DNA of 64,000 nt from an uncultured Thermomicrobiales bacterium (GTDB taxonomy: Bacteria; Chloroflexota; Chloroflexia; Thermomicrobiales; UBA6265), in assembly GCA_964244115.1 (NCBI GenBank), contig CAXTHM010000014.1, positions 330-64,329 of the forward strand. Direction: 5' to 3'. Below the pieces are notes generated by a model. It ran no database searches, was not told the DNA's origin, and saw only the letters and a list, made by a program, of their open reading frames with translations. Position 1 is the first letter of the stretch, and the number at the start of each line of letters is the position of its first letter. Shown here one piece after another: positions 29,184 through 46,229 of the stretch. A program made the translations under genes and the position numbers.

Positions 29184-29519
29184 ATGGACGGACGGACGAC
29201 CACAACCCCGTCGTTACCGGCGATCCTGACCGACCGTCTGGGCGAGATCGCCGCGGTCTGTCGGGAGTACGGGGTGCGCGAACTCTACGTCTTCGGCTCG
29301 GCCGTCCACGGCACGTTCGATCCGGAGACGAGCGATCTCGACTTCATGGTCAACCTGGGGGAGTACGAGCTGGAGATCGCCAGTCGGTATGTCCGGTTCT
29401 ACGAGGCCCTAAGAGCAGTGTTTGATCGAGACATTGATCTCATAACGGTACGTTCGAGGGGTAGCGACCGTTTTCTGGCGCGTGTCATCGAGACGCGCGA
29501 GCTTCTCTATGCCGCCTAG
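29184..29519 (+). CDS. MNT-type nucleotidyltransferase antitoxin (MntA-like)
   Basis: LYVFGSAVHGTFDPETSDLDFMV (GS..DxD minimal nucleotidyltransferase motif). 111 aa. Followed by a DUF86/HepT reading frame. Confidence 0.75.
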   Translation: MDGRTTTTPSLPAILTDRLGEIAAVCREYGVRELYVFGSAVHGTFDPETSDLDFMVNLGEYELEIASRYVRFYEALRAVFDRDIDLITVRSRGSDRFLARVIETRELLYAA

Positions 29520-29870
29520 GCGCGGTCGTAGTGTCGAGGATTCGCTGCGAGACGCCCTGCTTGCCGCAACGAAATCATCGAATGGACCAGCAACAAGACC
29601 TTCACCGATTACACGACTGACAAACGGATGCGGTACTCCCTTGAACGTCAGTTCGAGGTTCTGGGTGAGTCACTGAATGCCGCTGATCGCATCGAGGAGA
29701 ATCTTCGGCACACGATTCCGGAGATCGGCGAATTCATCGGATTGCGGAACGTCATTGCTCACGCGTACTTCCGGATCGACGACGAAGTCATCTGGTCGGC
29801 GATCCGGGTTGACATCCGCTCATTCAGACAAGGATCGTTGACTATCTCGGAGGCGATCACGATCCAGTGA
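29509..29870 (+). pseudogene. HepT/DUF86 (HEPN) toxin, frameshifted
   Basis: Frame 1 from ATG 29509: MPPRRGRSVEDSLRDALLAATK. Frame 0 continues IIEWTSNKTFTDYTTDKRMRYSLERQFEVLGESL...GLRNVIAHAYF (Rx4HxY HEPN motif). Joining them needs one extra base in the AAA run at 29572-29574. Frame 0 has no start before ATG 29628. Confidence 0.6.
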
Positions 29871-30259
29871 CGATGACCCCGATCACTCCGTCGATGAGAA
29901 CGCTCAATACCGTCAATCGCCCTTAGGCGCCGCAGAACCGGACGCCGCTATCGAGCGTTAGGTTAGGTAATGGCCCGGGCCACCCCGTCCGGATAGCGCC
30001 AGGGTTGTCCCGATCGGACCATCAACCGGATGGGTCGGTCGTCTTGACGCCCGGTCAACGCGCTGTCAGCATTGCTTTCAAACGCCCCCTCAGGCGATGT
30101 GATCCGCGCCCGATCCGGCCCGCGCACCGAACCCGGGACCGCCGCATCGTCGCCGGCGCCGGTCCGGCGGCCCTTCGACCGGGCCGCCAGCGGGACCGAT
30201 CTCTCACCCAGCCTGGAGTACTCGTCCGCGTGAATCAGTACCGCCGCCCCTCGTACGCC

Positions 30260-32776
30260 ATGGCCCCACCCACCCGCTCGGCCCGCTGGCCGTGGGCGCT
30301 GCTGATCGTCGTACTGCTCGCGATCGGCGCGATCGGCGCCCTGATCATCACCGACGGCAACCTCACCGGTGGCGACGACGGCCCCGAGACCGTGCCCGGT
30401 CCCAACGGCGAGATGATCATCGTCTCGCGGACCAGTCCGTCCGGAGAGGCGTCGGCGTCGGCGCCGGTCGCGTCGGCACCGACCGACGATGACGCGGGAT
30501 CGGCCGGCGACCCGGCCGCGAGCCCGGCCGATGGCAGCGCCCTCGCCAGTGCCGGGCCGACGGTCCCGCTCCCGACGTCGACGCCGGCTGGCCCGACCAA
30601 CACCGAGCTGGCCGCGGACTGGGCGGCGACCTGGCAGACCGGCGATTTCCAGGCGATGTACGGTCTGCTCAGCGACGCGGCCAGGGACACGATCTCCGAG
30701 GACGACTTCGTGGCTCGCTACCAGGCGATCTACGACCGCGCCACGATCACCAACGTCGTCGTCACGCTCGGCACCGACCCGCTGGCCGCCGACGCCGACG
30801 CCGTCCCGTTCAACGCCGCATTCACCTCGACGGCGCTCGGCGAGTTCGATCAGGACAACACCCTGCCGCTGGTTCAGCAGAACGGGGTCTGGACCGTCGA
30901 CTGGACGCCGTCAGCGATCTTCGACGGGCTCGACGACGACGGCTGCGTCGACCTCCAGAGCGACCCGACCGAGCGCGGCCGCATCCTCGACCGCAACGGC
31001 GAGATCCTCGCGCGGGACGATTTCTTCGACATCATCGGGGTCGACACCGGCGCGATCACCGACGCGGACGGCCTGAACCGCGGTCTGGCCAGTCTGCTCG
31101 GGATGAGCGCGGATGACGTCGCCGCGGCCTGGGCCAATGGCGTCGACGGTCAGTTCACTCCGATCCGTGGGCTCCCCGAGCGTCAGGTGACGCCGGAGAT
31201 GCTCGGCGAATTCGACCTGATCGACGGTGTCCAGGTCCAGCGGACCTCGGGTCGCTCCTACCCGTTCGGCGCCGTCGCGGCCCACATCACCGGCTACGTC
31301 ACGGTTGCGAGCGAGGAGGACATCGCCGCCGACCCGACCATCGCCGCCGGCAGCACGATCGGCCGGTCGGGACTCGAGGCGGGGGCCAACGACACGCTGG
31401 CCGGTGTCTCCGGGCTGGCGCTCTCGGTCGTGGACTGCACCTCCCGGGCGACCCGATCCACGATCGCCGAGCGGGCGGCCGTGCCAGGGCAGGACCTGAT
31501 CCTGACGATCGACATCGGCCTCCAGCAGGCGGTCGACAAGGTGCTGACCGACGTCGAGGGCACGGATGAGCGCGGCAGCGCCGTCCTGCTCGACCCGCGC
31601 AACGGGGCGGTCCTGGCGATGGCCTCCCACCCGACCTACGACCCCAACGGCTTCGTGCTCGGGTTCGACGAGAAAGCGCTGGCCCGGATCAACGACGACA
31701 CGCTCGCCCCGCTTCGCAACCGCGCCGCTGACAGTGCCTATCCAGTCGGATCGATCTTCAAGATCATCACGATGGCCGCCGGGATGGCCCACCTCGGCTA
31801 CGACGAGACCACCGTCCTGGAATGCCCGTCGTCGTACGAACTCAACGGCAACATCTACAACGACTGGGTGGTCGAGTGGGGCGAGCAGCCGCAGGGGCAA
31901 CTGACGCTTCACGACGCCCTTGTCCAGTCCTGCAACACCGTCTTCTATGACATCGGCGCCAAACTGGACCAGCAGGACGACCTGTTCCTGCCCGACATGG
32001 CCCGGTCGTTCGGGCTTGGCGCGCCGACCAACATCCCGTACCTGCCCGAAGTCGGCGGGACCGTCCCCGACGCCGCCTGGAAGGCGGAAGTCATCAGCGA
32101 CGGCTGGTCGACCGGCGACGCGATCAACCTCGCGATCGGACAGGGTTTCCTCGAAGCGACCCCGCTCCAGATGGCCAACGCCTACGCGACGATGGCCAAC
32201 GGCGGCACGCTGCTGGAGCCGTACATGGTCGAGTACACCCAGATCCCCGGCGGCCCCGCCACCCGCGTCGGTGAGCGCAAGGAGGTCGGCCAGGTGCCAC
32301 TCGACGCCACCCAGGTCGGCCAGATCCAGCAGGCGCTCCGCGACCAGACCAGCAACGCCGAGGAGCGCGGCTCGGCCCGGGTCTTCGGGGCCGCCTACCC
32401 GTTCGCGATCGCCGGCAAGACCGGGACGTCCGAGAGCTCGACCGAGCGCGGCAGCCAGCCCCACTCCTGGTTCGCCGCCTTCGGCCCCTGGGAGGACACC
32501 AGTTCCGTCCCGACGATCGCGTCCATCGTGATGCTGGAGAACAAGGGCGAGGGCGGCAAGGTCGCGGCCCCGGCGACCAAGGCGATCTACGACTACTACA
32601 TGACGACCGACCTCGCCGACCGGACCGACAGCGACGGGTCACCACCGCAGGCCATCGAGCCCGACCCGGCCGAACAGTACCCGGCCACCCTGCCGGCCAC
32701 CTCGCCGGCCCCGAGTACGAGCGGCCGCCGTCGCAAGGCGACCGTCCGGCTGCGTCCACGTCGCGTGGACGCATGA
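30260..32776 (+). CDS. class B penicillin-binding protein (transpeptidase) with NTF2-like N-terminal domain
   Basis: TM anchor WPWALLIVVLLAIGAIGALII. NTF2/MecA_N-like WAATWQTGDFQAMYGLLSD. SxxK = VGSIFKIIT, SxN = VQSCNTVF, KTG = AGKTGTSE. Low-complexity P/A/T tail. Start set at ATG 30260. Confidence 0.85.
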   Translation: MAPPTRSARWPWALLIVVLLAIGAIGALIITDGNLTGGDDGPETVPGPNGEMIIVSRTSPSGEASASAPVASAPTDDDAGSAGDPAASPADGSALASAGPTVPLPTSTPAGPTNTELAADWAATWQTGDFQAMYGLLSDAARDTISEDDFVARYQAIYDRATITNVVVTLGTDPLAADADAVPFNAAFTSTALGEFDQDNTLPLVQQNGVWTVDWTPSAIFDGLDDDGCVDLQSDPTERGRILDRNGEILARDDFFDIIGVDTGAITDADGLNRGLASLLGMSADDVAAAWANGVDGQFTPIRGLPERQVTPEMLGEFDLIDGVQVQRTSGRSYPFGAVAAHITGYVTVASEEDIAADPTIAAGSTIGRSGLEAGANDTLAGVSGLALSVVDCTSRATRSTIAERAAVPGQDLILTIDIGLQQAVDKVLTDVEGTDERGSAVLLDPRNGAVLAMASHPTYDPNGFVLGFDEKALARINDDTLAPLRNRAADSAYPVGSIFKIITMAAGMAHLGYDETTVLECPSSYELNGNIYNDWVVEWGEQPQGQLTLHDALVQSCNTVFYDIGAKLDQQDDLFLPDMARSFGLGAPTNIPYLPEVGGTVPDAAWKAEVISDGWSTGDAINLAIGQGFLEATPLQMANAYATMANGGTLLEPYMVEYTQIPGGPATRVGERKEVGQVPLDATQVGQIQQALRDQTSNAEERGSARVFGAAYPFAIAGKTGTSESSTERGSQPHSWFAAFGPWEDTSSVPTIASIVMLENKGEGGKVAAPATKAIYDYYMTTDLADRTDSDGSPPQAIEPDPAEQYPATLPATSPAPSTSGRRRKATVRLRPRRVDA

Positions 32777-33459: not shown

Positions 33460-34704
33460 ATGCCGCCCCCGGTCGCCTTCCTGCCCTCTACCGAATCGAT
33501 CGCCCCCGACCCCGCCGACCGTTACGCCCGGCAGCGGCTCCTGCCGTGGTGGGACCAGGACCGGCTGGCCGCGGCGCGGGTCGTCGTCGCTGGGGCCGGC
33601 GCCGTCGGTAACGAGGCGCTCAAGCTGCTCGCCCTCGTTGGTGTGGGCGAGATCGTCGTGGTCGATTTCGACACCGTCTCGCCCTCGAACCTGAGCCGGA
33701 CCGTCCTGTTCCGGGCCGAGGACGTCGGGCAGCCCAAGGCCGCGCTGGCCGCCCGCCGGACGAGGGAGATCAACCCGGAGGTCCACGTCGCCGCGATCGA
33801 CGGGGACATCGGCCGCGACCTCGGGCTGGCAACGCTGGCTGGGGCCGACGTCGTCCTCGGCGGGCTGGACAGCATCAACGCCCGCTGGTCGCTGAACCGG
33901 CGCTGCCTCCAGGCCGGCGTCCCCTGGATCAACGCCGGGATCACCGCCTCCGATGTCCAGGTCAGCCGGCACGTCCCCGGCGAGGGCGCCTGCTACGAGT
34001 GCACCTTCACCGAGGGGATGGCGCGGCGGTTCAACGCGCGCTCCTCCTGCACCGGGCTCGTCCGCCGGACGCCGGACCGGACGGTGCCGACGACCGCGAT
34101 CGGCGCCTCGGTCGTCGCCGGGCTGATGGTCCACGACGCGCTCCGCTTCCTGCACGACCCGGCCACCGGGCTCCGGGCCGGCCAGCGCCAGACCCTCCTG
34201 CTGGATGGCTATCGCCAGTTCCTCGACGATCTGCCCGTCGACCCGGACTGCCCGGCCCACACCGACCCGGTCCGCGACTGGACCACGACCGACCGTGACC
34301 CGGCCACGACCTCGGCCCGGGCACTGGCCAGTACCGCCGGGCTGTCGGAGGCGACCTGGCTGGAGTTGACGTTCGAGCTCGTTCTGGGCTTCTCCTGCCC
34401 CGCTTGCGGCGTGACGGAGGATGTCGGGCGACCGACCGCCGCCGTCTACGAGGAGGAGATCCTCTGCCCGACCTGCCGGCAGGAACGGATCGTCGCCCGT
34501 GGCACCCGTGTCCCGCTCGACGGCCCGCTCGCCGAACGGCCCCTGGCCAGCCTCGGCGTCCCGCCGCACGATCTGGTCGCTGTCGGAATCGGCGACCGGG
34601 CCGGAACATGGCTGGAGACGGGCGGGGAGTCACCGTGGCGAACCATCCCGGACCGACCGACACAGCACCGACCCGAAACCGTACCGACAGGAGCCCAGCG
34701 ATGA
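33460..34704 (+). CDS. ThiF/MoeB-family E1-like ubiquitin-like-protein activating enzyme
   Basis: RYARQRLLPWW, Rossmann VVVAGAGAVGNEALKLLALVGVGEIVVVDFDTVSPSNLSRTVLF, CYEC, SSCTG. C-terminal extra domain with CPACG...CPTCR. GAAGGAGA RBS before ATG 33460. The stop overlaps the next start (ATGA). Confidence 0.85.
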   Translation: MPPPVAFLPSTESIAPDPADRYARQRLLPWWDQDRLAAARVVVAGAGAVGNEALKLLALVGVGEIVVVDFDTVSPSNLSRTVLFRAEDVGQPKAALAARRTREINPEVHVAAIDGDIGRDLGLATLAGADVVLGGLDSINARWSLNRRCLQAGVPWINAGITASDVQVSRHVPGEGACYECTFTEGMARRFNARSSCTGLVRRTPDRTVPTTAIGASVVAGLMVHDALRFLHDPATGLRAGQRQTLLLDGYRQFLDDLPVDPDCPAHTDPVRDWTTTDRDPATTSARALASTAGLSEATWLELTFELVLGFSCPACGVTEDVGRPTAAVYEEEILCPTCRQERIVARGTRVPLDGPLAERPLASLGVPPHDLVAVGIGDRAGTWLETGGESPWRTIPDRPTQHRPETVPTGAQR

Positions 34705-35048
34705 CCGAGCCCATCCAGCAGCCCACCCCCGGCACCCCCAACGAGATGACGCTGAACATCCGGACCGCCAATCGGGACCGCAAGGCCGAGATCGCCGTCG
34801 ACCCGACCGTGACGGTCTCGGAGATCCTCGAAGCCGCCATGCAGAACTGGGCCCTGCCGACGGACTACGACTACGTCGTCCGCAGCGACCGCCTCGGGAC
34901 CCAGCTCCGCCCCTCGGCGACGCTGATCGGCAGCGGCGTCCGCGAGGGCGACATCCTCGAGATCCAGCCGATCGCCGACGCCGGCAGCTCGGCCGGTCGG
35001 CAGGTCCTGCTCTGGCTGGACCCGGTCGGAGCCTGCCCGTGGGCGTGA
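34701..35048 (+). CDS. small ubiquitin-like (beta-grasp-sized) protein, probable precursor
   Basis: 115 aa wedged between the E1 and E2 genes with overlapping stops and starts. The ~80-aa core ends ...GDILEIQPIADAG (Gly95), followed by a 20-aa tail. The fold is inferred from size, context and pattern, not proven. Confidence 0.65.
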   Translation: MTEPIQQPTPGTPNEMTLNIRTANRDRKAEIAVDPTVTVSEILEAAMQNWALPTDYDYVVRSDRLGTQLRPSATLIGSGVREGDILEIQPIADAGSSAGRQVLLWLDPVGACPWA

Positions 35049-35566
35049 TGATCCGCCGGCGGCAGGCCGACCTCGAACGGCTCCGCGAACTGGCGGCGGC
35101 CAACCCCGGCCGGATCGAGATCGTCGCCGTCGAGGGCGAGCCCCCGACGATGATCCGCTTCCGGCTCACCTGCCAGAGCATCACCGAGCTGTCCGCATCG
35201 GGCCAGCCCACCCTCGGCGGCAGCCACCTCCTCCGGGTCCACTTCGGCCAGCGCTACCCGCTGGAGCCGCCGCTGGTCTACGTCGAGTCGCCGATCGCCA
35301 ACCCGCACGTCTTCCCGACCACCCGGCGGATCTGCATCGGCGCCGCCTGGATCCCGTCGGAGACGCTCGACCTGTTCACCCAGCGCGTCTGGGCGATCCT
35401 GGCCTGGGACCCGCAGGTGATCGACCCCGGCAGCCCGGCCAACATGACCGCGCTGAAGTGGTCCGAGGACCACCGGGACCGCCTGCCGATCGAGCCGACC
35501 CGCCTCCGGAACGCCGGGACCCTCGTGCAGGTCGACGCCAAACCGCGCCTGAGCTGGCGGGGCTAG
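35048..35566 (+). CDS. E2-like ubiquitin-conjugating enzyme (UBC fold)
   Basis: LLRVHFGQRYPLEPPLVYVESPIANPHVFPTTRRICIGAAWIPSETL matches the YPxxPP...HPN...C...W.P block of E2s. Candidate catalytic Cys96 = 35333-35335. An alternative GTG start lies at 35045. Confidence 0.8.
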   Translation: MIRRRQADLERLRELAAANPGRIEIVAVEGEPPTMIRFRLTCQSITELSASGQPTLGGSHLLRVHFGQRYPLEPPLVYVESPIANPHVFPTTRRICIGAAWIPSETLDLFTQRVWAILAWDPQVIDPGSPANMTALKWSEDHRDRLPIEPTRLRNAGTLVQVDAKPRLSWRG

Positions 35567-35596
35567 ACGCGGACGGGCGGCTCGACGGACAACGAT

Positions 35597-35660
35597 CGTA
35601 GGGTCACGGGCTTGCCCTGACCGGTCGCCGCAGCGGCCATCGCCCCGCAGGGCGATAATT
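35597..35660 (-). repeat. family-A repeat inserted between the E2 and JAB genes
   Basis: CGTAGGGTCACGGGCTTGCCCTGACCGGTCGCCGCAGCGGCCATCGCCCCGCAGGGCGATAATT. Confidence 0.8.
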
Positions 35661-35694
35661 ATTGGCCGGGCGGCCAGAGGCGGAGGACAGGTCG

Positions 35695-36480
35695 ATGGTC
35701 GCGTGGAAGAGCACAACCGAGTTCAGCCCGGAGCCCCTCGACCTGGCTGCCTACGCCGCGGCCCATCACCTCGCCCTGCCGGAGACGGATAACGCGATCG
35801 GGCCGACCGACCCGGTCCTCGTCATCGACCACGCCGCCTGGGAGGCGCTCTGGGACCACGCCCGGTCGGCCGACGTCGAGGTCGGCGGGCTGCTGGTCGG
35901 CGAGGTCTTTCGGGATACGGCGACTGACCGACCGGTCACGATCGTCCGGGGCGCGATCCCGGCCATTGGCGGAGCGTCGTCCGCCGTCAGCTTCACCTTC
36001 ACGCCGGACGCGTGGGACCACCTCACCGCCGCGCGTGACCACTCGTGGCCGGAGCTGATCACCGTCGGCTGGTTCCACACCCACCCCAACCTCGGCGTCT
36101 TCTACTCTGGGACCGACCGCAACACGCAGCACGCCTTCTTCAACCGCCCCTGGAACGTCGGTATCGTCGTCGACCCGCTGGCGCTCTCGGATCAGGTCGG
36201 GCTGTTCGTCGGCGCCCACAGTCGCCGCATCCCGGCCTCGGACCTCGTCGTCGCACCGGAGCTGATTGCCGTCGCACGGCAGCCGGTCGCCGGTGCACGG
36301 GTGCCCGCCGCGCCGGTCCCGGAGCCGATCCGTCCCGTCCCGACGCCGATCCGCCCGACGATCCGCACCGTCTGGGACACCTACGGCTCGCGAGTCGCGG
36401 CGGCGGCGGCCGGAGCGGCAGTCGCCGTCGTGGCGGTGGCCGCGACCGAATGGGTCCGCTCGCAGCGCAGGGAACCGTAG
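35695..36480 (+). CDS. JAB/MPN+ (JAMM) metalloprotease with Pro-rich linker and hydrophobic C-terminal segment
   Basis: VEVGGLLVGE (Glu) and GWFHTHPNLGVFYSGTD, an exact HxHx7SxxD at 36076-36117. C-terminus: ...PVPEPIRPVPTPIRP...RVAAAAAGAAVAVVAVAATEWVRSQRREP. GGAGGA RBS before ATG 35695. Confidence 0.85.
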   Translation: MVAWKSTTEFSPEPLDLAAYAAAHHLALPETDNAIGPTDPVLVIDHAAWEALWDHARSADVEVGGLLVGEVFRDTATDRPVTIVRGAIPAIGGASSAVSFTFTPDAWDHLTAARDHSWPELITVGWFHTHPNLGVFYSGTDRNTQHAFFNRPWNVGIVVDPLALSDQVGLFVGAHSRRIPASDLVVAPELIAVARQPVAGARVPAAPVPEPIRPVPTPIRPTIRTVWDTYGSRVAAAAAGAAVAVVAVAATEWVRSQRREP

Positions 36481-37521
36481 ATGAGCGAGCGCGCCGAGCA
36501 GATCTCCTATCTGCAACGCCTGATCGACCGGATGACCGGCCGGTCGGCGGCGGCACACGAGGCGGCCAGTGAACCCGCCCATCTGCTCACGCCCGACCCG
36601 CGCGAGTCCCAGCAGCGCCACGGCGACCGGCCCCGGACACCCGGCTCCCGCCCACCATCCCGAACGCCGGCGTCAACGCCGAGAGCGCTGGAATCCCGCA
36701 CGCCGGAGCGCATGGCCCGGCCGACCCCGTCGACGATCTCGTGGGGCGGGGCGGCGGGTCCGTCCGTGCTCGACGACCCGCTCCACTTCATCGGCCAGAC
36801 AGACCCGCTCGAAGGGACCGCCCTGCTGGCCGGGGAGCAGGTCTCGGTCTGCACCCGCTGCGGCGCGGCCTATCACCTCGCGACGATGAGCTTCATCCGC
36901 GGCGCGACCGGCGGCGCCTGCGTCAGTTGCGGCACCGCCGGGCTGTTCCAGACCCTGACGCTGGAGGCCGGCGCCCAGACCATCGCCGCCCCGCCACCGC
37001 CGGTCATCACGATCCCGGTCGCGAACGAGCGCAAACCCATCCGTCCGACCCCTACCGCCGCGCCGCCCCGTGACGCCGCCGGCCGGCCGATCATCCAGCT
37101 CCATCAGGTCCGCGACCACATCGGCGAGGAGGTCGCCTTCGAGGGCCGCGTCCTCCGGGTCCATCTCACCGGCGGCGGGGCCTACTTCCTCTACTTCGAG
37201 CGGGCGGCCCGGGTGCTCGACGGCTTCCGGGCCGTGATCCGGCCGCGGGACATCTTCCACTGGGAGATCGAGGGGCTCGTCCCGCCCGACGCCTACCCGG
37301 ACCAGTGGGTCCGGATCGCGGGGCGGATCGTCGACGACCCGCGCTGGCAACTGGAGATCCTGATCCAGCGGCCGGAGTCGATCCAGATCCTCGACGGCCC
37401 GACCGAGTCGGCCGGCTGGCGCCCGGACGACGGGCTGATCCCGGACATCCCGGCCCCGCTGCTGTCCGACGCCCCGGCCATGAAGTCGGAACCAGCCGCC
37501 CGGGTCCGCTGGCTGGATTGA
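36481..37521 (+). CDS. Zn-ribbon plus OB-fold-like protein of unknown function (candidate adaptor/E3-like/target)
   Basis: The start abuts the JAB stop (TAGATG). Disordered P/R/S-rich N-terminal third. CTRCGAAYH...CVSCG (C124, C127, H132, C147, C150; 36850-36930). C-terminal pattern IIQLHQVRDHIGEEVAFEGRVLRVHLTGGGAYFLYFE...FRAVIRPRD...DQWVRIAGRIVDDPRWQLEILIQRPESIQIL is typical of OB-fold modules. Confidence 0.6.
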   Translation: MSERAEQISYLQRLIDRMTGRSAAAHEAASEPAHLLTPDPRESQQRHGDRPRTPGSRPPSRTPASTPRALESRTPERMARPTPSTISWGGAAGPSVLDDPLHFIGQTDPLEGTALLAGEQVSVCTRCGAAYHLATMSFIRGATGGACVSCGTAGLFQTLTLEAGAQTIAAPPPPVITIPVANERKPIRPTPTAAPPRDAAGRPIIQLHQVRDHIGEEVAFEGRVLRVHLTGGGAYFLYFERAARVLDGFRAVIRPRDIFHWEIEGLVPPDAYPDQWVRIAGRIVDDPRWQLEILIQRPESIQILDGPTESAGWRPDDGLIPDIPAPLLSDAPAMKSEPAARVRWLD

Positions 37522-37565
37522 CCCGAACTGCCGAACGGCGCCATCGTGACCAAGGGAGCCAGACG

Positions 37566-38354
37566 ATGCAACCGAAACCGGCGCACCTCGAAGCACGCTA
37601 CGGCGAGCAGTTCTCCGACCAGTCGGTCGTGGACGCCTACGGGCTCCGGCCGCCCTACCCCGATGGCGTCATCGACCTACTCGCCGACCTCGCCGGTCCG
37701 ACGGGGGCCGTGCTCGACCTCGGCTGCGGGACCGGCGAGATCACCCGCCGCCTCGCCGGGCGCGTCGGCCGGATCGACGCGGTCGACCCGTCGGCGGCGA
37801 TGCTTGTCAGGGCCCGGTCGTTGCCTGGCGGGGACCAAGCGAACCTGTCCTGGATCCACGGAGCGGCCGAAGATGCTCCGTTCGACCCGCCGTACGACCT
37901 CGTCTGCGCCGCCGCCGCGCTCCACTGGATGGACTGGGCGGTCGTCCTGCCCAGAATCCGGGCGGCGCTGACCCCGTCCGGTCCGCTGGCGATCGTTGGG
38001 GACGGCGTGGCTACCGTCCCCTGGGCCGCCGACGCGCAGGTCGTGATCGATCGATATTCGACCAACCGGGATTACCGTCCCTACAATCTGCAAGCAGAAC
38101 TCGAGCAGCGCGGACTCTTCCGCGAGACCGGCCGCTACCGCTCCGAGCCGGTCCCGTTCGACCAGACGATATATGATTACGTCAACAGCTATCACGCTCG
38201 CAATGGCTTCTCCCGCGACCGGATGGACCCGGCCAAAGCCGACGCCTTCGACCGCGAGCTGACCGCCATCGTCGCCTCACACGTCACCGGCGATACCGTC
38301 CGGCTCATGGTCTTCGGCGCCATCGTCTGGGGCATCCCCGGACCCGCCGATTGA
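37566..38354 (+). CDS. class I SAM-dependent methyltransferase
   Basis: Motif I VLDLGCGTGEITRRLA, motif II RIDAVDPSAAML, post-II DLVCAAAALHWMDW. AAGGGAG RBS. Confidence 0.8.
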   Translation: MQPKPAHLEARYGEQFSDQSVVDAYGLRPPYPDGVIDLLADLAGPTGAVLDLGCGTGEITRRLAGRVGRIDAVDPSAAMLVRARSLPGGDQANLSWIHGAAEDAPFDPPYDLVCAAAALHWMDWAVVLPRIRAALTPSGPLAIVGDGVATVPWAADAQVVIDRYSTNRDYRPYNLQAELEQRGLFRETGRYRSEPVPFDQTIYDYVNSYHARNGFSRDRMDPAKADAFDRELTAIVASHVTGDTVRLMVFGAIVWGIPGPAD

Positions 38355-38450
38355 TCTCCCCTACCCCACAGACATCCCTTCGCCAGGCGCCCCTTTCCAT
38401 CGCATCACCCCGACGGCGGCCCGGCTAGTGGCCCCGTCACAGGAGCGCAG

Positions 38451-40508
38451 ATGAGCGACGACCCCACCGATCCCCAGGACGACAGCGCGACCGGCGCCGA
38501 GCCGGAACTGTCCAACAACGACGGCGGCATCGGCCGTCCGCCACCCCGAACCCCGCGCCCGCCCCGCCTCGACGAGCGTCGCGGCGGCCTACGCGGACCC
38601 AATGGCCGGATCATCCCGCCGGGCGGCTCCGGGCCGGGCCGGAATGGCCCCCCGGTCCCGACCGTCCGCTTCCTCACCGGGCAGGGTCAGGCCGACGGCG
38701 ACCGGACCGAGCGCGAGGGCGACGAGCCCGACGAGCCGACCAGCACGACGCCGCTGCTCGATGCGGCGGGCCGCGACCTGACCGCCCTGGCCCGAGCCGG
38801 CGAGCTACCGGACATCGTCGGCCGCGACCCCCAGATCCTCCAGCTCGCCCAGACGCTGCTCCGCCATGACCGCCCCGCGCCGCTCCTGATCGGCGAGTCC
38901 GGCATCGGGCGGACGGCGATCGTCGAGGGGCTCGCCGTCCGGGCCGTCGCCGAGGGGGCCGACCCGCGGCTGGCGAAGCTCCGGATCGTCCAGCTCTCGC
39001 TCGACCAGATGGGCGGCGACGCGATGATCCGTCCCCGGATGGCGAACCGCTTCGGCGCCGTTCTGGAAGAGGTCGTCGCCCACCCGGATACGGTCCTGTT
39101 CATCGACGGGCTGCACCTGCTGCTCGGCGGGACCCCGATCGAGATCGTCCCGGCCGACGTGCTGCGCGGCTTCCTCAACCAGCACGCCGGCCAGATGATC
39201 GGCACGACGACGCCGAAGATCGCCGAGGCGATGCTGAGCCCGCAGCGCGAGCTCGCCCCGTCGCTGATGCCGATCACCGTCGGCGAGCTCTCGGAAGAGG
39301 ATGCCCGGACGCTACTGACCCGGCAGGCCGGTGCCTACGCCGCCCACCATGACGTCGAGATCGGTCCGGACGCGATCGAGGCCGCCCTCGCCCTCAGCAT
39401 CCGCTACGTCTCCCAGGGCTGGTTGCCGCGCAAGGCCAGCGAGCTGCTCGACATCGCCGCCAGCCAGCGCAGCCTGCCCCTGCTGACCGGCCGGGCGAAC
39501 GGCGAGCGTCCCGTCGTGACGCCGGAGGCGATCGCCGCCGCACTCCACGCCCGCTGGGGGATCACCGCCCCGAGCTGGGACGCCGCCCAGGAGCACAGTG
39601 AGCCGACCCCGCTGGCCGCGCCGGCGGACCTCGCCGAGCGGCTGGCCGAACGCATCCTCGGGCAGCCCGAGGCGATCGGCGCCATGACCGACGCCGTCCG
39701 CGTCGCCGCCCTCGGGCTCCGCACGACCGACCGGCCCCGGGCCGTGATGCTGTTCGGCGGCCCGACCGGCGTCGGCAAGACGGCCCTCGCCCGGAACCTG
39801 GCCTCGGCCCTGTTCGGCTCCGAAGAGGCGCTGCTCCGGATCGACATGAGCGAGTTCCAGCAGCAGCACGTCATCGCCCGGCTACTCGGGGCGCCCCCCG
39901 GCTTCGTCGGCTACAACGACGGCGGCCAGCTCTCCCGCTTCCTCCGCGCCCACCCGGAGAGCGTCATCCTGCTCGATGAGATCGAGAAGGCCCACCCGCA
40001 GGCGCTCGACATCTTCCTCCAGCTCTTCGACGCCGGCCGGATCACCGATGGCCACGGCCAGATCCTCGACGCCCGCCACGCCGTCTTCATCATGACGACC
40101 AACCTCCCGATGAGCGACAACCACGTCACCCTCCGGGCTCGGCTGCGACCGGAGTTCCTCAACCGGATCGACCGGATCGTCCAGTTCCGGGCCCTGGAAC
40201 TGGAGGACCTCGAGCGGATCGCGTTGATGCGGCTGGAGACGCTGACCGCCCAGCTCCGCGCCCGGCAGATCATCCTGCGGGTCACGCCGGACGCCCTGAC
40301 CGCCCTGGCCCGGCCGGAGTCCGACGGGCGGGCTGCCAACGGTCGCACGGTCGAGCGCCGGCTGGACCAGGAGGTGGCCGGGCGGGTCGCCGAGTGGGCC
40401 GCGCTGCTGACCGGGATGGCGCCGGGCCAGCCGGTCGTCCTGACGCTGGAGGCCACCGCGACCGGCACCCGCGTCAGCCCGCCGGGGATGCTCGACGTCA
40501 ACGCCTGA
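38451..40508 (+). CDS. ClpA/ClpB-family double-ring AAA+ ATPase with degenerate D1 and no Clp_N domain
   Basis: D1: LIGESGIGRTAIVEGLA (Walker A Lys replaced by Arg) and VLFIDGLHLLLG (Walker B DE replaced by DG). D2 is canonical: LFGGPTGVGKTALA, VILLDEIEKAHPQALDIFLQLFDAGRITDG, LLGAPPGFVGY, PEFLNRID. The first ~100 aa are G/P/R-rich. No coiled-coil M-domain and no IGF/IGL-type loop seen. Confidence 0.8.
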   Translation: MSDDPTDPQDDSATGAEPELSNNDGGIGRPPPRTPRPPRLDERRGGLRGPNGRIIPPGGSGPGRNGPPVPTVRFLTGQGQADGDRTEREGDEPDEPTSTTPLLDAAGRDLTALARAGELPDIVGRDPQILQLAQTLLRHDRPAPLLIGESGIGRTAIVEGLAVRAVAEGADPRLAKLRIVQLSLDQMGGDAMIRPRMANRFGAVLEEVVAHPDTVLFIDGLHLLLGGTPIEIVPADVLRGFLNQHAGQMIGTTTPKIAEAMLSPQRELAPSLMPITVGELSEEDARTLLTRQAGAYAAHHDVEIGPDAIEAALALSIRYVSQGWLPRKASELLDIAASQRSLPLLTGRANGERPVVTPEAIAAALHARWGITAPSWDAAQEHSEPTPLAAPADLAERLAERILGQPEAIGAMTDAVRVAALGLRTTDRPRAVMLFGGPTGVGKTALARNLASALFGSEEALLRIDMSEFQQQHVIARLLGAPPGFVGYNDGGQLSRFLRAHPESVILLDEIEKAHPQALDIFLQLFDAGRITDGHGQILDARHAVFIMTTNLPMSDNHVTLRARLRPEFLNRIDRIVQFRALELEDLERIALMRLETLTAQLRARQIILRVTPDALTALARPESDGRAANGRTVERRLDQEVAGRVAEWAALLTGMAPGQPVVLTLEATATGTRVSPPGMLDVNA

Positions 40509-41035: not shown

Positions 41036-41238
41036 GTGTTTGGCAAGAAATCGCATGGCCGTGACCGCGTCGCCCAATATGGATCGCATGGTCCCTTGCC
41101 TTGATGGCCGCTGCGGCGGCCCGGATGGGCAATCTCCCCCTCCGGACGTCGTCGCCTTGCACGACCGGAAATGAGACCGACCGTGAACACGCCCGCCCTC
41201 ATCAGACACACCTTCAATTGACAGGGAATGGACCAGCA

Positions 41239-42513
41239 ATGATTACCCAGCACTACCCCCCAGCGGCTCCCGAGAGCACGCCGGACCCACGGATCTTCAG
41301 CAGCGAGGGACAGGCGTTCCTCGTCGGCGACACCATCTTCCTGCGCGGCATCGAGGACGAGGACGCCGTCCGCGCCAGCGCCTGGCGCGACTCTCCCTAC
41401 CCGATCAACGCCGAGCGGGCTGGCGAAATCATCAAGGAGATGACCGAGAAGCCCAAGCCCGGCAGCCGCTTCCTCGTCGCCTGCCGCCGCAGCGACGGCG
41501 AGCCGGTCGGCTCGCTGTCCCTGTCCCGCTGGCCAGGCAACGACCTCGACATCCCGGTGGACCTCTACGCCAACCCGGCCCTCCCCGACCGCGAGGCGAT
41601 CCGGGCCGAGATGCTGAAGCTGTTCATCGCGTGGGGCGCCAGCGAGGGCGAGCTCCCGGTGGTCTACATCGAGTTCGCCGACTCGCAGACCGAGCTCCGG
41701 GCGATGGCCGAGTCCCTCGGGATGCGCCACGCGGCCCTGTGGCGCGAGCAGCGCTGGCTCGACGGCGCCTGGCGGGACAAGCTCGCCTACGCCTGGCATA
41801 ACCCGGCCTGGATCCCGCGGCTCGGCGAGCCCGGCGTCGGGATCGACTTCGCCCTGCCCGTTGACGACGCCTCCCGCTGGCGCCCGCGGCAGTTCCCGAC
41901 CTACGGCACGCTCGGTGGCGACCCGCCGACCAATGCCGTCATGGTCGGCCCGCGCGTCTACCTGCGGCCGATCGAGATGGAGGACGCCCCGGTGATCGTC
42001 GCCGGCCAGCGCCGCGAGACCGAGACCTTCTTCGATGATGGCCGCCTGCCGGGGAGCGTCGCCCGGATGCGCCAGCACACCCGCGACCTGGTGAAGGACG
42101 ACATCCAGGAGTGGGTCCGGTTCGCCGTCTGCCTGCGAGAGACCGGCGAGATCATCGGCACCAACGGGATCGACTCCGTCGACCTGATCAACCGGACCGC
42201 CGAGACGGAGACGTTCTTCCACAACGCCGCCTACCGGGGCGGCGGCTACGGCTCGGAAGCCAAGCAGCTCCTGCTTGCCTACGCCTTCGAGCGCCTCGGG
42301 CTGCACTCCGTCTACAGCTGGGTCTGGGGGCCGAATACCCGCTCCGCCGCCGCGCTGCGCAAGCAGGGCTACCGCGAGTGCGGCCGCGTCTTCTGGGCCG
42401 GGACCAAGAACGGCGAGTACACCCACGCCTACACCTTCGACTTCCTCGCCGAGGAGTGGCGCGAGATGACGGCCCGGGCGGCCACTGCCGAGTCGATGGC
42501 GGTCGCCCGATAA
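41239..42513 (+). CDS. double-GNAT (RimJ/RimL-like) N-acetyltransferase, paralog 1
   Basis: Two acetyltransferase halves. The second carries the acetyl-CoA motif AYRGGGYGSEAKQLLLAYAFERLGLHSV...NTRSAAALRKQGYRECG. 424 aa from ATG 41239. Confidence 0.75.
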   Translation: MITQHYPPAAPESTPDPRIFSSEGQAFLVGDTIFLRGIEDEDAVRASAWRDSPYPINAERAGEIIKEMTEKPKPGSRFLVACRRSDGEPVGSLSLSRWPGNDLDIPVDLYANPALPDREAIRAEMLKLFIAWGASEGELPVVYIEFADSQTELRAMAESLGMRHAALWREQRWLDGAWRDKLAYAWHNPAWIPRLGEPGVGIDFALPVDDASRWRPRQFPTYGTLGGDPPTNAVMVGPRVYLRPIEMEDAPVIVAGQRRETETFFDDGRLPGSVARMRQHTRDLVKDDIQEWVRFAVCLRETGEIIGTNGIDSVDLINRTAETETFFHNAAYRGGGYGSEAKQLLLAYAFERLGLHSVYSWVWGPNTRSAAALRKQGYRECGRVFWAGTKNGEYTHAYTFDFLAEEWREMTARAATAESMAVAR

Positions 42514-43937: not shown

Positions 43938-44211
43938 GACCGTCTCCGGTCGCTCAGCTGGCGGACGCCGTGGCGAGCGACGGGAGACGGATTCCCCCTC
44001 TTCGATATGACGCTGATCCATGCCCGAGCCGCCGTGACCGCGGCGCTGGGTGACGAGACGGCATAGCCAGACACCTGCAGGTGTCGCCGAACCGGAACGA
44101 CTTGCCTGTGGCATCATCCCCCATGCCCTATCGCGTCCGGCGGCGGGGCGGTCGGTACCACGCGGTGCGCCGAGACGACCGCCGGACCGGCCCAGCAGAG
44201 GAGGAGTCATC

Positions 44212-45330
44212 GTGGAGCCTGTGCGCGTCGGCGTCGTCGGTACCGGAAACATCAGCAGCATCTACCTCGAGAACTCGCACAAGTTCCGTGAGTACGAGGT
44301 CGTCGCCGTCGCCGACATCCTCCAGGACCGTGCCCAGGAGCAGGCCGACAAGTTCGGCATCCCCCGCGCCCTGTCGGTCGATGAGCTGATCGTCGATCCG
44401 GAAGTCGAGCTCGTCCTCAACCTGACGATCCCGGCCGCCCACGCCGGGATCGCGATCCGGTCGCTGCAGGCCGGCAAGGTCGCCTACGGCGAGAAGCCGT
44501 TCGCGACCAACCGCGAGGATGGCCAGGCGATCCTCGACGCCGCCGCGGCCGCCGGCCTGGTCGTCGGCTGCGCCCCGGACACCTTCCTCGGCGCCGGCAT
44601 CCAGACGGTGCGCCACGCGATCGACTCCGGCCGGATCGGGACGCCGCACTCCGCGATGTGCGTGATGGCCGGCCCCGGCCCGGCCGTCTGGCACCCGGAC
44701 CCCGGCTTCTTCTTCCAGCCCGGCGGTGGACCGGTGCTGGACATGGGCCCGTACTACATCACCAACCTCGTCACCCTGCTCGGCCCGATCAAGCGGGTCT
44801 CCGCCAAGGGCTTCTCGCCCGGCAAGGAGCGCACGATCGGCATGGGGCCGAAGGCCGGCCAGACGATCCCGGTCGACATCCTGACGACGGTCTCGGCCCA
44901 GCTCGAGCTGGAGAGCGGCGTCCTCGCGACCCTGTTCATGAGCTGGGACGTCTGGGGCACGGAGAACACCAACGTCGAGATCTACGGGGAGGACGGCGCC
45001 CTCTCCGGCTGGGACCCGAACACCTTCCACGGCCCGATCAGGTTCCGGAACGCCGACAGCACCGAGCGCGACGTCTGGGAAGAACTCGACCTCGTCAGCC
45101 CGCACGACGGCAATTCCCGCGGCCTCGGACTTGCCGACATCGCGGTCGCCCACCGGACCGGCGTCGCCCCACGCGCCAGTGGCACCCTCGCCTTCCATGT
45201 CCTCGACGTCATGCTGAGCATCATCGAGTCAGCCGAGCAGGACCGCCCGGTCGAGATCGGCAGCCGGGCCGAGCGGCCGGAAGCCCTGCCGGCCGGGCTC
45301 GCCAACTGGACCGTGACGCTGGACCAGTAA
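44212..45330 (+). CDS. Gfo/Idh/MocA family NAD(P)-dependent oxidoreductase
   Basis: VRVGVVGTGNISSIYL Rossmann, AYGEKPFA. GTG start at 44212 preceded by GAGGAGGA; the track ORF starts earlier. Confidence 0.8.
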   Translation: MEPVRVGVVGTGNISSIYLENSHKFREYEVVAVADILQDRAQEQADKFGIPRALSVDELIVDPEVELVLNLTIPAAHAGIAIRSLQAGKVAYGEKPFATNREDGQAILDAAAAAGLVVGCAPDTFLGAGIQTVRHAIDSGRIGTPHSAMCVMAGPGPAVWHPDPGFFFQPGGGPVLDMGPYYITNLVTLLGPIKRVSAKGFSPGKERTIGMGPKAGQTIPVDILTTVSAQLELESGVLATLFMSWDVWGTENTNVEIYGEDGALSGWDPNTFHGPIRFRNADSTERDVWEELDLVSPHDGNSRGLGLADIAVAHRTGVAPRASGTLAFHVLDVMLSIIESAEQDRPVEIGSRAERPEALPAGLANWTVTLDQ

Positions 45331-45507: not shown

Positions 45508-45810
45508 ATGACCCAGACGCGTCCTGCCACCAGCTTACAGGCCACACGATCCCTGACGATCGAGACGGACGGCGACACGCAGATCATCCGTCTGCCATCC
45601 GACATCCATTTCGACGGGGATACGGTCATGCTCCGTCAGGATCAGGCGACGGGGGATGTCATCCTCTCGCAGCGCCCGAAGGCGAAGACCTGGGATGAAT
45701 TGTTCGCCATCCTCGATGAACTCGGACCGATGCCCGACGACTTCATGGCGGATCGACCGATGAATGGACCCATCGACCCACGCGGCGTGTTCGACGACGA
45801 GTTCCCATGA
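45508..45810 (+). CDS. vapB: VapB-type (AbrB/VagC-like) antitoxin
   Basis: TQIIRLPSDIHFDGDTVMLRQDQATGDVILS, C-terminal ...DFMADRP. ATGA overlap with the PIN gene. Confidence 0.7.
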   Translation: MTQTRPATSLQATRSLTIETDGDTQIIRLPSDIHFDGDTVMLRQDQATGDVILSQRPKAKTWDELFAILDELGPMPDDFMADRPMNGPIDPRGVFDDEFP

Positions 45811-46229
45811 CGCTTCGCTACATGCTCGATACCGACATCGCCAGCTACGTCGTCAAGGAGCGTCCGCCAGAGTTCCGAAGGCGGATGGATGCCATGCCCC
45901 TTGGTGAAGCCTGCGTCTCGGCGATCACTCGGGCAGAGCTGTTGTACGGCCTGGTTGGGTTCCCCGTTGACCATCGATTGCATGTGGGCACTGCTGCGTT
46001 TCTCGAATCGGTCGTGATCCTCGACTGGCCGACATCAGCTGCGGAGAGGTTCGCCGGGATCAAGCACGACCTGGTATCGACCGGTCAGCGAATCGGTGAG
46101 ATGGACCTGCTGATCGCCGCCCATGCGCTGGACGCCGGCCTGCCGCTGGTGACAGGGAACGTCCGGCACCACGGGCGCGTTCCGGGGCTGGAAGTCATCG
46201 ACTGGCGAGACGCTCCTAACGAGGGCTGA
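45807..46229 (+). CDS. vapC: VapC PIN-domain toxin
   Basis: YMLDTDIASYVVK, ITRAELLYG, DLLIAAHALDAGLPLVTGNVRHH. Confidence 0.85.
   Translation: MTLRYMLDTDIASYVVKERPPEFRRRMDAMPLGEACVSAITRAELLYGLVGFPVDHRLHVGTAAFLESVVILDWPTSAAERFAGIKHDLVSTGQRIGEMDLLIAAHALDAGLPLVTGNVRHHGRVPGLEVIDWRDAPNEG

Follow-up and report, generated by a model that had tools for sequence, protein, structure and literature searches.

A candidate E3-like protein with a RING-like zinc module and a predicted OB fold in a bacterial ubiquitin-like conjugation operon

Gene X and its conjugation operon

We examined a 64,000-nucleotide stretch of DNA from an uncultured Thermomicrobiales bacterium (GenBank assembly GCA_964244115.1, contig CAXTHM010000014.1, positions 330–64,329 of the forward strand), hereafter called the window, and within it an open reading frame (ORF) that we designated gene X. 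X (36481–37521, + strand) encodes 346 amino acids and belongs to a cassette of genes for ubiquitin-like protein conjugation, with an E1 activating enzyme, a ubiquitin-like modifier (Ubl), an E2 conjugating enzyme, and a JAB peptidase encoded upstream of X, and a methyltransferase and an AAA+ ATPase downstream (Table 1). Its product joins a zinc module, probably a RING finger reduced to one zinc site, to a predicted OB fold, and is a candidate E3-like component of this system. Scans of X against Pfam, PADLOC, and NCBIfam gave no assignment, and the latter two contain no model for the Ubl or the E2 either.

Because the G+C content of the window is approximately 70%, long spurious ORFs are common, and overlapping ORFs were listed in all frames. 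X is a real gene and not an artefact of high G+C. Its codon-position G+C values are 0.72/0.57/0.91 (i.e., 0.91 at third positions), and its third-position frame signal stays at 0.85–0.97 over the entire ORF, like that of the flanking genes, running on from JAB and differing from the frame used downstream. The ATG of X directly abuts the stop codon of the JAB ORF, which ends at 36480 (...CCG TAG ATG AGC...), as had been annotated initially. Sixteen close homologues, down to 41% identity, were aligned (alignment A1; 41–90% identity), and those with a named source all came from Thermomicrobiales.

Alignment A1 divides X into five parts, namely, an N-terminal helix, a disordered linker, the zinc module, the OB-fold domain, and a tail, with a second variable linker between the module and the OB domain. 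A conserved block that contains five Cys/His residues extends from ISWGG (residues 85–90) to approximately residue 160. When the structure was predicted with AlphaFold2 (AF2) from A1, confident structure was limited to the helix, the zinc block (predicted local distance difference test score, pLDDT, of 80–89), and the C-terminal domain (~90). The initial annotation had described residues 1–95 as rich in P, R, S, and T. This holds for their composition (49%, compared with 33% in the whole protein, and 53% over residues 23–95), but residues 1–22 form a conserved predicted helix and not a low-complexity segment; comparable N-terminal helices occur in the Anaerolineae relatives. Similarly, of the ~110 C-terminal residues annotated as OB-like, those up to residue 310 belong to the predicted OB domain, but the last 36 residues of the protein form a disordered tail outside it.

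Relatives of X were found at 27 loci outside the window, with near-identical assemblies counted once. X adjoins cassette genes at all 24 loci that have flanking sequence, as it does in the window, and none of these informative loci lacked cassette genes; the remaining three (L021, L022, and L024) are uninformative, with X at the contig edge. The earlier assignment of X to the cassette is thereby borne out, and conservation next to E1, E2, and JAB in other genomes, which had been proposed as a check, proved strongly positive. The genes occur in three orders: E1-Ubl-E2-JAB-X(-AAA+), X-(DnaJ)-E1-Ubl-E2-JAB, and AAA+-JAB-X. X immediately follows JAB in the window and at 19 further distinct loci, and two short contigs have an upstream fragment resembling a JAB tail besides. 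In Thermomicrobiales, the neighborhood is chromosomal and wholly syntenic, with a PBP gene upstream and GNAT genes downstream, and this synteny alone is little proof of linkage. However, the linkage between X and the cassette extends far past it. A 33%-identical homologue (L009) lies in a different neighborhood in the order E1-Ubl-Ubl-E2-JAB-X-AAA+; E1-Ubl-E2-JAB-X-AAA+ recurs in Chloroflexota/Anaerolineae genomes and metagenome contigs (L010–L013 and L019–L031); and AAA+-JAB-X is found in a metagenome-assembled genome of Planctomycetales (L014).

The order X-(DnaJ)-E1 occurs at four loci (L015–L018); the next gene after E1 is Ubl in L018, and E1 is succeeded by Ubl-E2-JAB in L017. X is followed by DnaJ in three of the four. 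Several X proteins of this subfamily have transmembrane-like N-terminal segments, and some have a near-complete set of RING ligands; furthermore, in the DnaJ-linked X of L015, L016, and L017 (852–5667), a further zinc ribbon (CxxC...CxxC) separates the RING-like module from the OB. At the other loci, AAA+ follows X wherever at least ~100 nt downstream are covered, except in L020, L021, L023, and L024. The AAA+ protein was rejected as an obligatory partner, since none is encoded downstream of X in L021, L023, or L024. Because AAA+ is missing downstream of X at some loci and the methyltransferase occurs only in Thermomicrobiales, the core of the operon consists of E1, Ubl, E2, JAB, and X.

Searching 1.8 billion cluster representatives with the X profile gave 203 matches at E ≤0.001 (~200 clusters at 50% identity), and scans of viral contigs with the family alignments A2 and A5 found no relatives of X. 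Among 163 sequences in hand, 98 have the architecture of a RING-like module plus OB; further sequences carry a single module, tandem modules, or a module combined with TPR repeats. Each of the two domains is mobile independently of the other. P0066, P0047, and P0077 carry the module without OB in two or three tandem copies, followed in P0066 by TPR repeats. OBs on their own form tandem arrays preceded by hydrophobic N-termini, and in one protein, P0082, they follow a PLD-family domain. An OB-OB protein without a zinc module in an unrelated neighborhood (P0017, locus L006) was not counted as a family member.

The zinc module

The CxxC-x4-H...CxxC pattern that had been annotated at 36850–36930 was confirmed as C124-x2-C127-x4-H132-x14-C147-x2-C150, and all five residues are invariant in the 16 homologues. 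In the C4HC3 pattern of RING and PHD-type fingers, C3, C4, C7, and C8 bind one zinc, and C1, C2, H5, and C6 bind the other. The X sequence C124-x2-C127-x4-H132-x2-T135...C147-x2-C150 is in exact register with C3-x2-C4-x4-H5-x2-C6...C7-x2-C8, and D108-x2-E111, twelve residues upstream, stands at the place of C1-x2-C2. From this register, X would keep site 2, with C124 (36850), C127 (36859), C147 (36919), and C150 (36928) as the predicted zinc ligands, and would have site 1 swapped for the polar residues D108 (36802), E111 (36811), H132 (36874), and T135 (36883). U-box and SP-RING domains likewise have polar replacements of zinc sites.

Column statistics over 67 diverse modules of the family agree with this assignment. 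C124, C147, and C150 are each present in 67 of 67 modules, and D108 and Y131 each in 66. Position 127 is Cys in 58 modules and Asp in 7, and the examined members of the C127D group compensate with an additional Cys at position 148, which favors a zinc site with four ligands. At the former site-1 positions, 62 of the 67 modules have D, T, E, or S at residue 111, and all have S, T, or C at residue 135. Some relatives whose Cys4 set is intact have Q, R, T, or S in place of H132, which is therefore probably not a zinc ligand and was set aside as a fifth one on these grounds. The initial count of about five ligands can thus be upheld for a single Cys4 site but not for the histidine, and the family-wide count is four. 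X has hydrophobic residues (L110, M136, and V148) at the equivalents of the positions with which RING fingers contact E2, and these positions are hydrophobic in nearly all 67 modules (that of M136 can also be W).

Some relatives retain more of the ligand set. P0057, P0058, and P0064 have the pattern C-x2-D...C...C...H-x2-C...C-x2-C, a near-complete set of approximately eight ligands. P0058 and P0064 match positions 3–43 of the Pfam model Prok-RING_1 (PF14446) at 26 bits against a cut-off of 29.1, and the P0058 module aligns end to end with the RINGs of EL5 and NOT4, with non-significant E-values. Within the family, modules grade from a two-zinc RING to a half-polar form with one zinc. Prok-RING_1 is also the commonest Pfam match of the family, reached by 35 of the 67 modules at E ≤0.1 (best E 4.9e-6, below threshold), and PHDvar_NSD, zf-RING_2, PHD, and zf-RING_4 are among the other most frequent matches. 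The best Prok-RING_1 scores of individual relatives, approximately 26 bits, stay under 29.1. In PDB sequence searches, matches to PRDM9 were discarded as sums of chance matches to its “TGEKPYVCxxCG” C2H2 linkers, with E >0.4 for each single stretch.

In a domain-only AF2 model of the zinc module (pLDDT 83, predicted template modeling score 0.70), the elements follow one another as strand-strand-helix-strand, with hairpin, helix, knuckle, and strand arranged as in a RING. In both AF2 models, a predicted helix of 10 residues (133–142) separates the knuckles, at variance with the helix-free arrangement of a zinc ribbon. When the module was searched against the PDB with Foldseek, approximately 30 of the top 50 matches were RING or U-box E3s (among them RNF20, TRIM21, Bre1, Rad18, Prp19, TRAF6, and LubX), at weak E-values of 0.1–1.

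The initial annotation had preferred a zinc ribbon to a RING. The C4HC3 register, the predicted helix between the knuckles, the Prok-RING_1 matches, the near-complete relatives, and the RING/U-box structural neighbors all speak otherwise, and the zinc module of X is probably a decayed, one-zinc RING finger rather than a plain zinc ribbon. The eight-ligand, two-zinc cross-brace of a RING finger is absent from X, which keeps site 2 alone. X is RING-derived and not a member of the RING family: it lacks the two zinc sites and stays below the Pfam threshold, while its genomic context, encoded together with E1, E2, Ubl, and JAB, is that of a RING-type protein. Bacterial RINGs without two of the zinc-ligand pairs, in which the central-hairpin and C-terminal pairs are retained, have been described in a review (PMC11354881).

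OB domain, shared motif, and partner proteins

AF2 predicted residues 197–310 as a beta-barrel (pLDDT ~90). A Foldseek search of the PDB with this domain gave 161 matches at E ≤0.001, the best of which were the N-terminal OB domains of the asparaginyl-, aspartyl-, and lysyl-tRNA synthetases (AsnRS, AspRS, and LysRS; E 2e-6 to 1e-4, probability 1.0). The predicted model therefore supports an OB fold resembling the anticodon-binding OB of class IIb tRNA synthetases (PF01336/PF13742; best match at E 2e-6) and has the structural resemblance that marks the tRNA_anti-codon superfamily. Unlike the synthetase domains, the OB of X is near-neutral and is joined to a RING-like module instead of a catalytic domain. 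X reaches no OB threshold in the Pfam scan, where the single match in this region was DUF5818 (E 0.012), and the OB-only relatives P0052 and P0082, which were reached with the X profile, pass the cut-offs of both PF01336 and PF13742. P0082 joins its PLD-family domain to several OB copies.

A short motif, [RK]-[IVL]-x-W, recurs in the disordered termini of E2, of AAA+ or DnaJ, of X, and in the extension of the Ubl precursor (pro-Ubl), across all clades (outside the window at L009–L012, L015–L017, L019, and L025–L031). X has one copy approximately 20 residues before the zinc module and a second at its C-terminus. The tryptophan of the first copy is present in 36 of the 37 sequences that cover its column in the further family alignment A3. 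In 120 family proteins, 108 copies were observed N-terminal of the module, compared with 27.8 ± 5.4 in shuffled sequences, and among family C-terminal tails of 15 or more amino acids, the motif is present in 21 of 27, nearly always at the extreme C-terminus. All complete E2s examined carry it at their very C-terminal end. In AAA+ proteins whose start is covered, it is almost always present at the N-terminus (V-R-F replaces it in Thermomicrobiales), and the DnaJ proteins of the second gene order have two N-terminal copies. By analogy with SUMO-interacting motifs (SIMs) and LIR motifs, the Ubl is a candidate receptor for [IVL]-x-W, and the RING-like module and the OB are further candidates.

X has just two lysines in 346 residues, K185 (ERKP) and K335 (MKSE), both in disordered linkers. 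A lysine occurs at or beside the K185 column in 13 of the 16 close homologues, and among these homologues, K335 stands in a psi-K-x-E context (M-K-S-E or V-K-T-E). The lysine content of the cassette proteins of the window (33460–40508) is 0.4–1.2%, with a single lysine among the 272 residues of JAB, and that of the neighboring genes at 30257–32776, 41227–42513, and 44194–45330 is 1.3–2.1%. Such depletion is not seen in the lower-GC Anaerolineae operons.

The enzymes of the cassette have counterparts at the other loci. E1 orthologues are encoded in the same operon in L001, L003, L009–L013, L017, L018, and L030, and the contigs of L015 and L016 end in incomplete ThiF genes. The Ubl has a conserved end, ...EIQP[IL]ADAG, which in the window reads ...IQPIADAG (to residue 95, 34985) and is followed by a 20-residue extension with VLLWLD (34971–35048 in all). 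Of four Anaerolineae/Chloroflexota orthologues (such as those at L010, 8194–8448; L012, 8090–8365; and L013, 5218–5472), three stop exactly after ...ADAG, and one has four more residues; the Thermomicrobiales orthologues have C-terminal extensions of 20–23 residues. From the sequences, the mature Ubl probably ends in Ala-Gly at residue 95; the extension in Thermomicrobiales implies processing of a pro-Ubl, which would plausibly be trimmed by the JAB peptidase.

The E2 orthologue in L017 passes the UQ_con cut-off (30.7 bits against 27). C96, W101, and the tail residue W170 are invariant in nine E2s of ~30% identity, and the UBC features used in RING binding are retained, namely, loop 4 (Y-P-[LF]-x-x-P) and loop 7 (W-x-[PA]-[SA]). 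At 35300–35308, the window E2 has N-P-H where eukaryotic E2s have H-P-N upstream of the catalytic Cys, and other clades have H-P-H or H-P-N (alignment A6). JAB ends in a hydrophobic, transmembrane-like tail (36394–36456) followed by basic residues. Its strongest 19-residue hydropathy window (1.6–2.55) lies at the C-terminus in all eight orthologues examined, and similar tails occur at the same position in L001, L003, L009–L013, and metagenome loci. This pattern suggests that JAB is a tail-anchored, membrane-bound deconjugating enzyme.

The methyltransferase is absent from L009–L012, where AAA+ directly follows X. In L003 (9090–9878), its gene has an in-frame stop in place of the window Trp in ...VPWAAD..., and it was called in two pieces in three independent assemblies (L003–L005). 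It was accordingly rejected as a core component, being missing from the operons examined outside Thermomicrobiales and interrupted in L003–L005, and is probably dispensable. The AAA+ protein matches the NCBIfam models of ClpA/ClpB below their cut-offs. In the window, L001, and L003, its first ATPase domain (D1) has the Walker A sequence GESGIGRT (K to R; 38892–38915 in the window) and the Walker B sequence FIDG (DE to DG; 39093–39110), whereas the Anaerolineae orthologues have the canonical GxxGVGKT and FIDE. Judged by these motifs, D1 is probably catalytically dead in the window lineage; D2 is intact in the window protein. The region is flanked by toxin–antitoxin-like pairs, one with an MNT-like nucleotidyltransferase and a HepT-like RNase (29184–29870) and one at 45508–46229, in which a small unassigned ORF (45508–45810) overlaps a PIN-domain (VapC-like) gene. 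Two tandem double-GNAT paralogues lie at ~41.2–43.9 kb.

Table 1. Features of the conjugation cassette and of protein X in the window
Feature	Position	Strand	Evidence or remarks
E1, ThiF-type adenylating enzyme with C-terminal extension	33460–34704	+	Pfam ThiF, 6e-54
Ubl, YukD-like beta-grasp protein	34701–35048	+	Pfam YukD, 6.8e-5, 24.0 bits against cut-off 27 (below threshold)
Motif site VLLWLD (Ubl extension)	35004–35021	+	Sequence
E2, UBC-like, predicted catalytic C96 in RICIG, C-terminal tail RLSWRG	35048–35566	+	Pfam UQ_con, 25.6 bits against cut-off 27
Motif site RLSWRG (E2)	35546–35563	+	Sequence
JAB/JAMM peptidase, intact H-x-H...S-x2-D (36076–36117)	35662–36480 (start maybe ATG 35695)	+	Pfam Prok-JAB, 30.5 bits against cut-off 25; JAB
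X residues 1–22, conserved N-terminal amphipathic helix (MSERAEQISYLQRLIDRMTGRS)	36481–36546	+	Kept in A1; AF2 helix 2–19, pLDDT ~80
X residues 23–84, P/R/S/T-rich disordered linker, variable in length and sequence	36547–36732	+	pLDDT <50; gap-rich and poorly aligned in A1
X residues 85–90, TISWGG, first [IVL]-x-W copy, at a fixed distance before the zinc module	36733–36750	+	W88 and G89 invariant in A1
X residues 95–162, predicted single-zinc RING/PHD-like module	36763–36966	+	AF2 domain model, column statistics, Pfam, Foldseek
X residues 163–196, proline-rich linker with K185 (ERKP)	36967–37068	+	pLDDT <50
X residues 197–310, predicted OB-fold domain, tRNA_anti-codon type	37069–37410	+	pLDDT ~90; Foldseek
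X residues 311–346, disordered tail with K335 (A-M-K-S-E) and the terminal second [IVL]-x-W copy, RVRWLD (37501–37518)	37411–37518	+	R343 and W344 invariant in A1
S-adenosylmethionine-dependent methyltransferase, lineage-specific insertion between X and AAA+	37566–38354	+	Pfam Methyltransf_25, 3.8e-18
AAA+, ClpA/ClpB-type double ATPase without N-domain or M-domain, disordered N-terminal region	38451–40508	+	Pfam AAA_2, 9e-45; AAA_lid_9
Motif site TVRFLTG (AAA+)	38661–38681	+	Sequence

Possible function of X

Taking the alignments and predicted models together, we see about an even chance that X is the E3-like scaffold of a bacterial conjugation operon with an E1, a YukD-type Ubl, a UBC-type E2, and a JAB peptidase; among the roles suggested by the initial annotation, that of an E3-like factor or substrate adaptor is the one favored by the evidence. 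As such a scaffold, X would dock the E2~Ubl thioester on its RING-like module via L110, M136, and V148, in the manner of a single-zinc SP-RING or a U-box, and the OB domain would pick what is tagged, either a protein or a nucleic-acid-bound target. A single receptor may hold E2, X, and the unfoldase or J-protein together by binding their [IVL]-x-W peptides, and tagged substrates would then be passed to the chaperone near the membrane-anchored JAB.

Known systems offer partial parallels. The operon can be likened in its working to the archaeal system of E1, E2, a small RING finger protein (srfp), and Rpn11. The srfp of Candidatus Caldiarchaeum subterraneum belongs to Prok-RING_1, which is also the best and most frequent Pfam match of the X family, whereas X keeps one of the two zinc sites, scores below threshold, and is fused to an OB with long disordered linkers. 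The systems also differ in that the Ubl encoded beside X is YukD-like and ends in Ala-Gly and that the operon often adds a ClpA/B-like AAA+ or a J-protein. In Caldiarchaeum, mutation of the equivalent E2 loops (4 and 7) or of RING residues I30, W58, and R69 impairs E3-dependent conjugation (PMC5654768). The X module also recalls two other types of ligase. SP-RING SUMO ligases (Siz/PIAS and Nse2) and U-box ligases (Prp19, CHIP, and LubX) are RING folds that have one or both zinc sites replaced by polar or hydrogen-bond networks and keep E2 binding, and SP-RING ligases also use a nearby short SIM. Similarly, X has [IVL]-x-W ~20 residues before the module, and the U-boxes of Prp19 and LubX are among its Foldseek neighbors. 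X has no detectable sequence homology to either type, and its surviving zinc site is deduced from alignment.

The anti-phage Bil (BilABCD) systems, Bub, and CBASS Cap2/Cap3 are bacterial operons whose E1, E2, Ubl, and JAB proteins, whether separate or fused, carry out real protein conjugation (PMC11601603). The X operon differs from these in having a candidate E3 and a eukaryote-type (UQ_con) E2. By the PADLOC models, the window cassette does not belong to Bil: the Ubl, E2, and X had no match to the Bil models, E1 matched BilD weakly (1.1e-6), and JAB matched generic JAB models weakly (~1e-4). In our literature searches, no publication describing an E1-Ubl-E2-JAB-RING/OB-AAA+ operon came up. 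In 2011, Burroughs et al. reportedly predicted prokaryotic Ub-like operons that encode RINGs together with YukD-like modifiers. What appears to be new is the one-zinc, half-polar state worked out column by column, the constant fusion to OB, the alternative AAA+ and DnaJ partners, and the shared [IVL]-x-W motif.

Several observations weigh against the assignment of X as an E3. Against Prok-RING_1, full-length X scores 14.1 bits and the module by itself 18.8 bits, both short of the gathering threshold of 29.1; no significant sequence or structure match of the X module to any solved RING was obtained in the Pfam, Foldseek PDB, and PDB profile searches; and searching PDB sequences with A2 and A3 yielded no significant match, the C2H2 matches being spurious or at chance level. 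The Foldseek list of the module also includes Sir2 zinc modules, rubredoxin, and HypA. The window clade has no conserved “linchpin” Arg/Lys after C150 (G151 and T152 stand there), although R or K occupies that place in many relatives. With a net charge of approximately –3 in X (by hand count) and +2 as the family mean, the OB is not basic, which makes nucleic-acid binding uncertain. In addition, as Burroughs et al. reportedly noted in 2011, not all prokaryotic RINGs act in Ub-like pathways. Among bacterial systems that have been characterized, Bil, Bub, and CBASS Cap2 were described as E1, E2, Ubl, and peptidase parts without an E3 (PMC11601603).

Three other roles were weighed, which are not fully exclusive of the E3 role, since an E3 may bind nucleic acid and modify itself. 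Instead of a ligase, X could be a receptor for Ubl conjugates or their shuttle, with the finger or the [IVL]-x-W motifs binding Ubl and X delivering tagged proteins to the neighboring AAA+ or J-protein, comparable to Npl4/Ufd1 for Cdc48 or to the ubiquitin receptors of the proteasome. Small ubiquitin-binding zinc fingers (NZF, UBZ, ZnF-UBP, and A20) are common; X stands beside a chaperone-type gene when one is present (X-AAA+, X-methyltransferase-AAA+ in Thermomicrobiales, or X-DnaJ at three of the four loci of the second order), and it shares the same motif with the N-termini of AAA+ and DnaJ. However, neither AAA+ nor DnaJ is encoded downstream of X at three loci where the sequence continues for 5 kb or more (in L023, the next genes assignable by Pfam are PrpD-like and amidohydrolase genes), indicating that X is tied more tightly to E1, Ubl, E2, and JAB than to a chaperone. 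Moreover, the sequence affinities of the module are with RING and PHD, not with NZF or UBZ, and the presence of the motif on E2 too fits an assembly hub better than a pure reader. We regard a receptor role as rather unlikely.

An ordinary Cys4 zinc ribbon, with X as a nucleic-acid sensor or regulator that switches the cassette on in response to foreign or damaged DNA or RNA, appears more doubtful still. The two CxxC knuckles would suit it, as would the Sir2 zinc modules, rubredoxin, and the thiolase zinc ribbon in the Foldseek list of the module and the weak Pfam matches to ADK_lid and PknG_rubred; the OB falls in the nucleic-acid-binding tRNA_anti-codon class, and several such OBs accompany the PLD-family domain of P0082. 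On the other hand, a helix is predicted between the knuckles, the conserved D108, D/E/T111, H132, and S/T135 lie exactly at the places of the lost RING ligands, intermediates with approximately eight ligands exist, and Prok-RING_1 is by far the commonest Pfam match. The Foldseek probabilities of the ribbon-type matches (0.14–0.47) are lower than those of the RINGs (up to 0.77), and the charge of the OB is near neutral. Least probable, and very unlikely in our estimate, is that X serves as a dedicated conjugation target or auto-modified regulator, carrying Ubl on K185 and/or K335. The isolation of these two lysines in disordered linkers, their retention in close homologues, the psi-K-x-E context of K335, and the low lysine content of all the window cassette proteins relative to their neighbors are in its favor. 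Nevertheless, the lysines are not conserved past close relatives, the Anaerolineae homologues have a normal lysine content, and the conserved RING-like module and OB would be left unexplained; auto-modification is itself typical of E3s and hence compatible with the E3-like scaffold.

A more far-reaching version of the E3-like scaffold, to which we give a low probability, is that the cassette constitutes a complete bacterial pathway of E1, E2, E3, and deubiquitinase-type enzyme wired to a remodeling machine. In such a pathway, [IVL]-x-W would assemble E2, X, and the unfoldase or J-protein at the membrane JAB, where tagged substrates would be extracted or unfolded, and X would be the first bacterial chromosomal RING-type E3 acting on the Ubl of the cell itself. 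If true, the wired cassette would be a bacterial counterpart of the ubiquitin–Cdc48 logic of endoplasmic-reticulum-associated degradation, or of the ubiquitin–proteasome logic.

The sole reconstituted prokaryotic RING E3 that we found in the literature is archaeal, and the X family offers a compact and widely sampled bacterial operon with a candidate E3 that is directly testable. The series from a two-zinc to a one-zinc, half-polar module bears on the origin of the U-box and SP-RING ligases, and the operon ties Ubl tagging to Hsp100 or Hsp70-cofactor partners via a common linear motif. The four cysteines, L110/M136/V148, and the motif tryptophans provide mutable handles on the purpose of Ubl tagging in bacteria.

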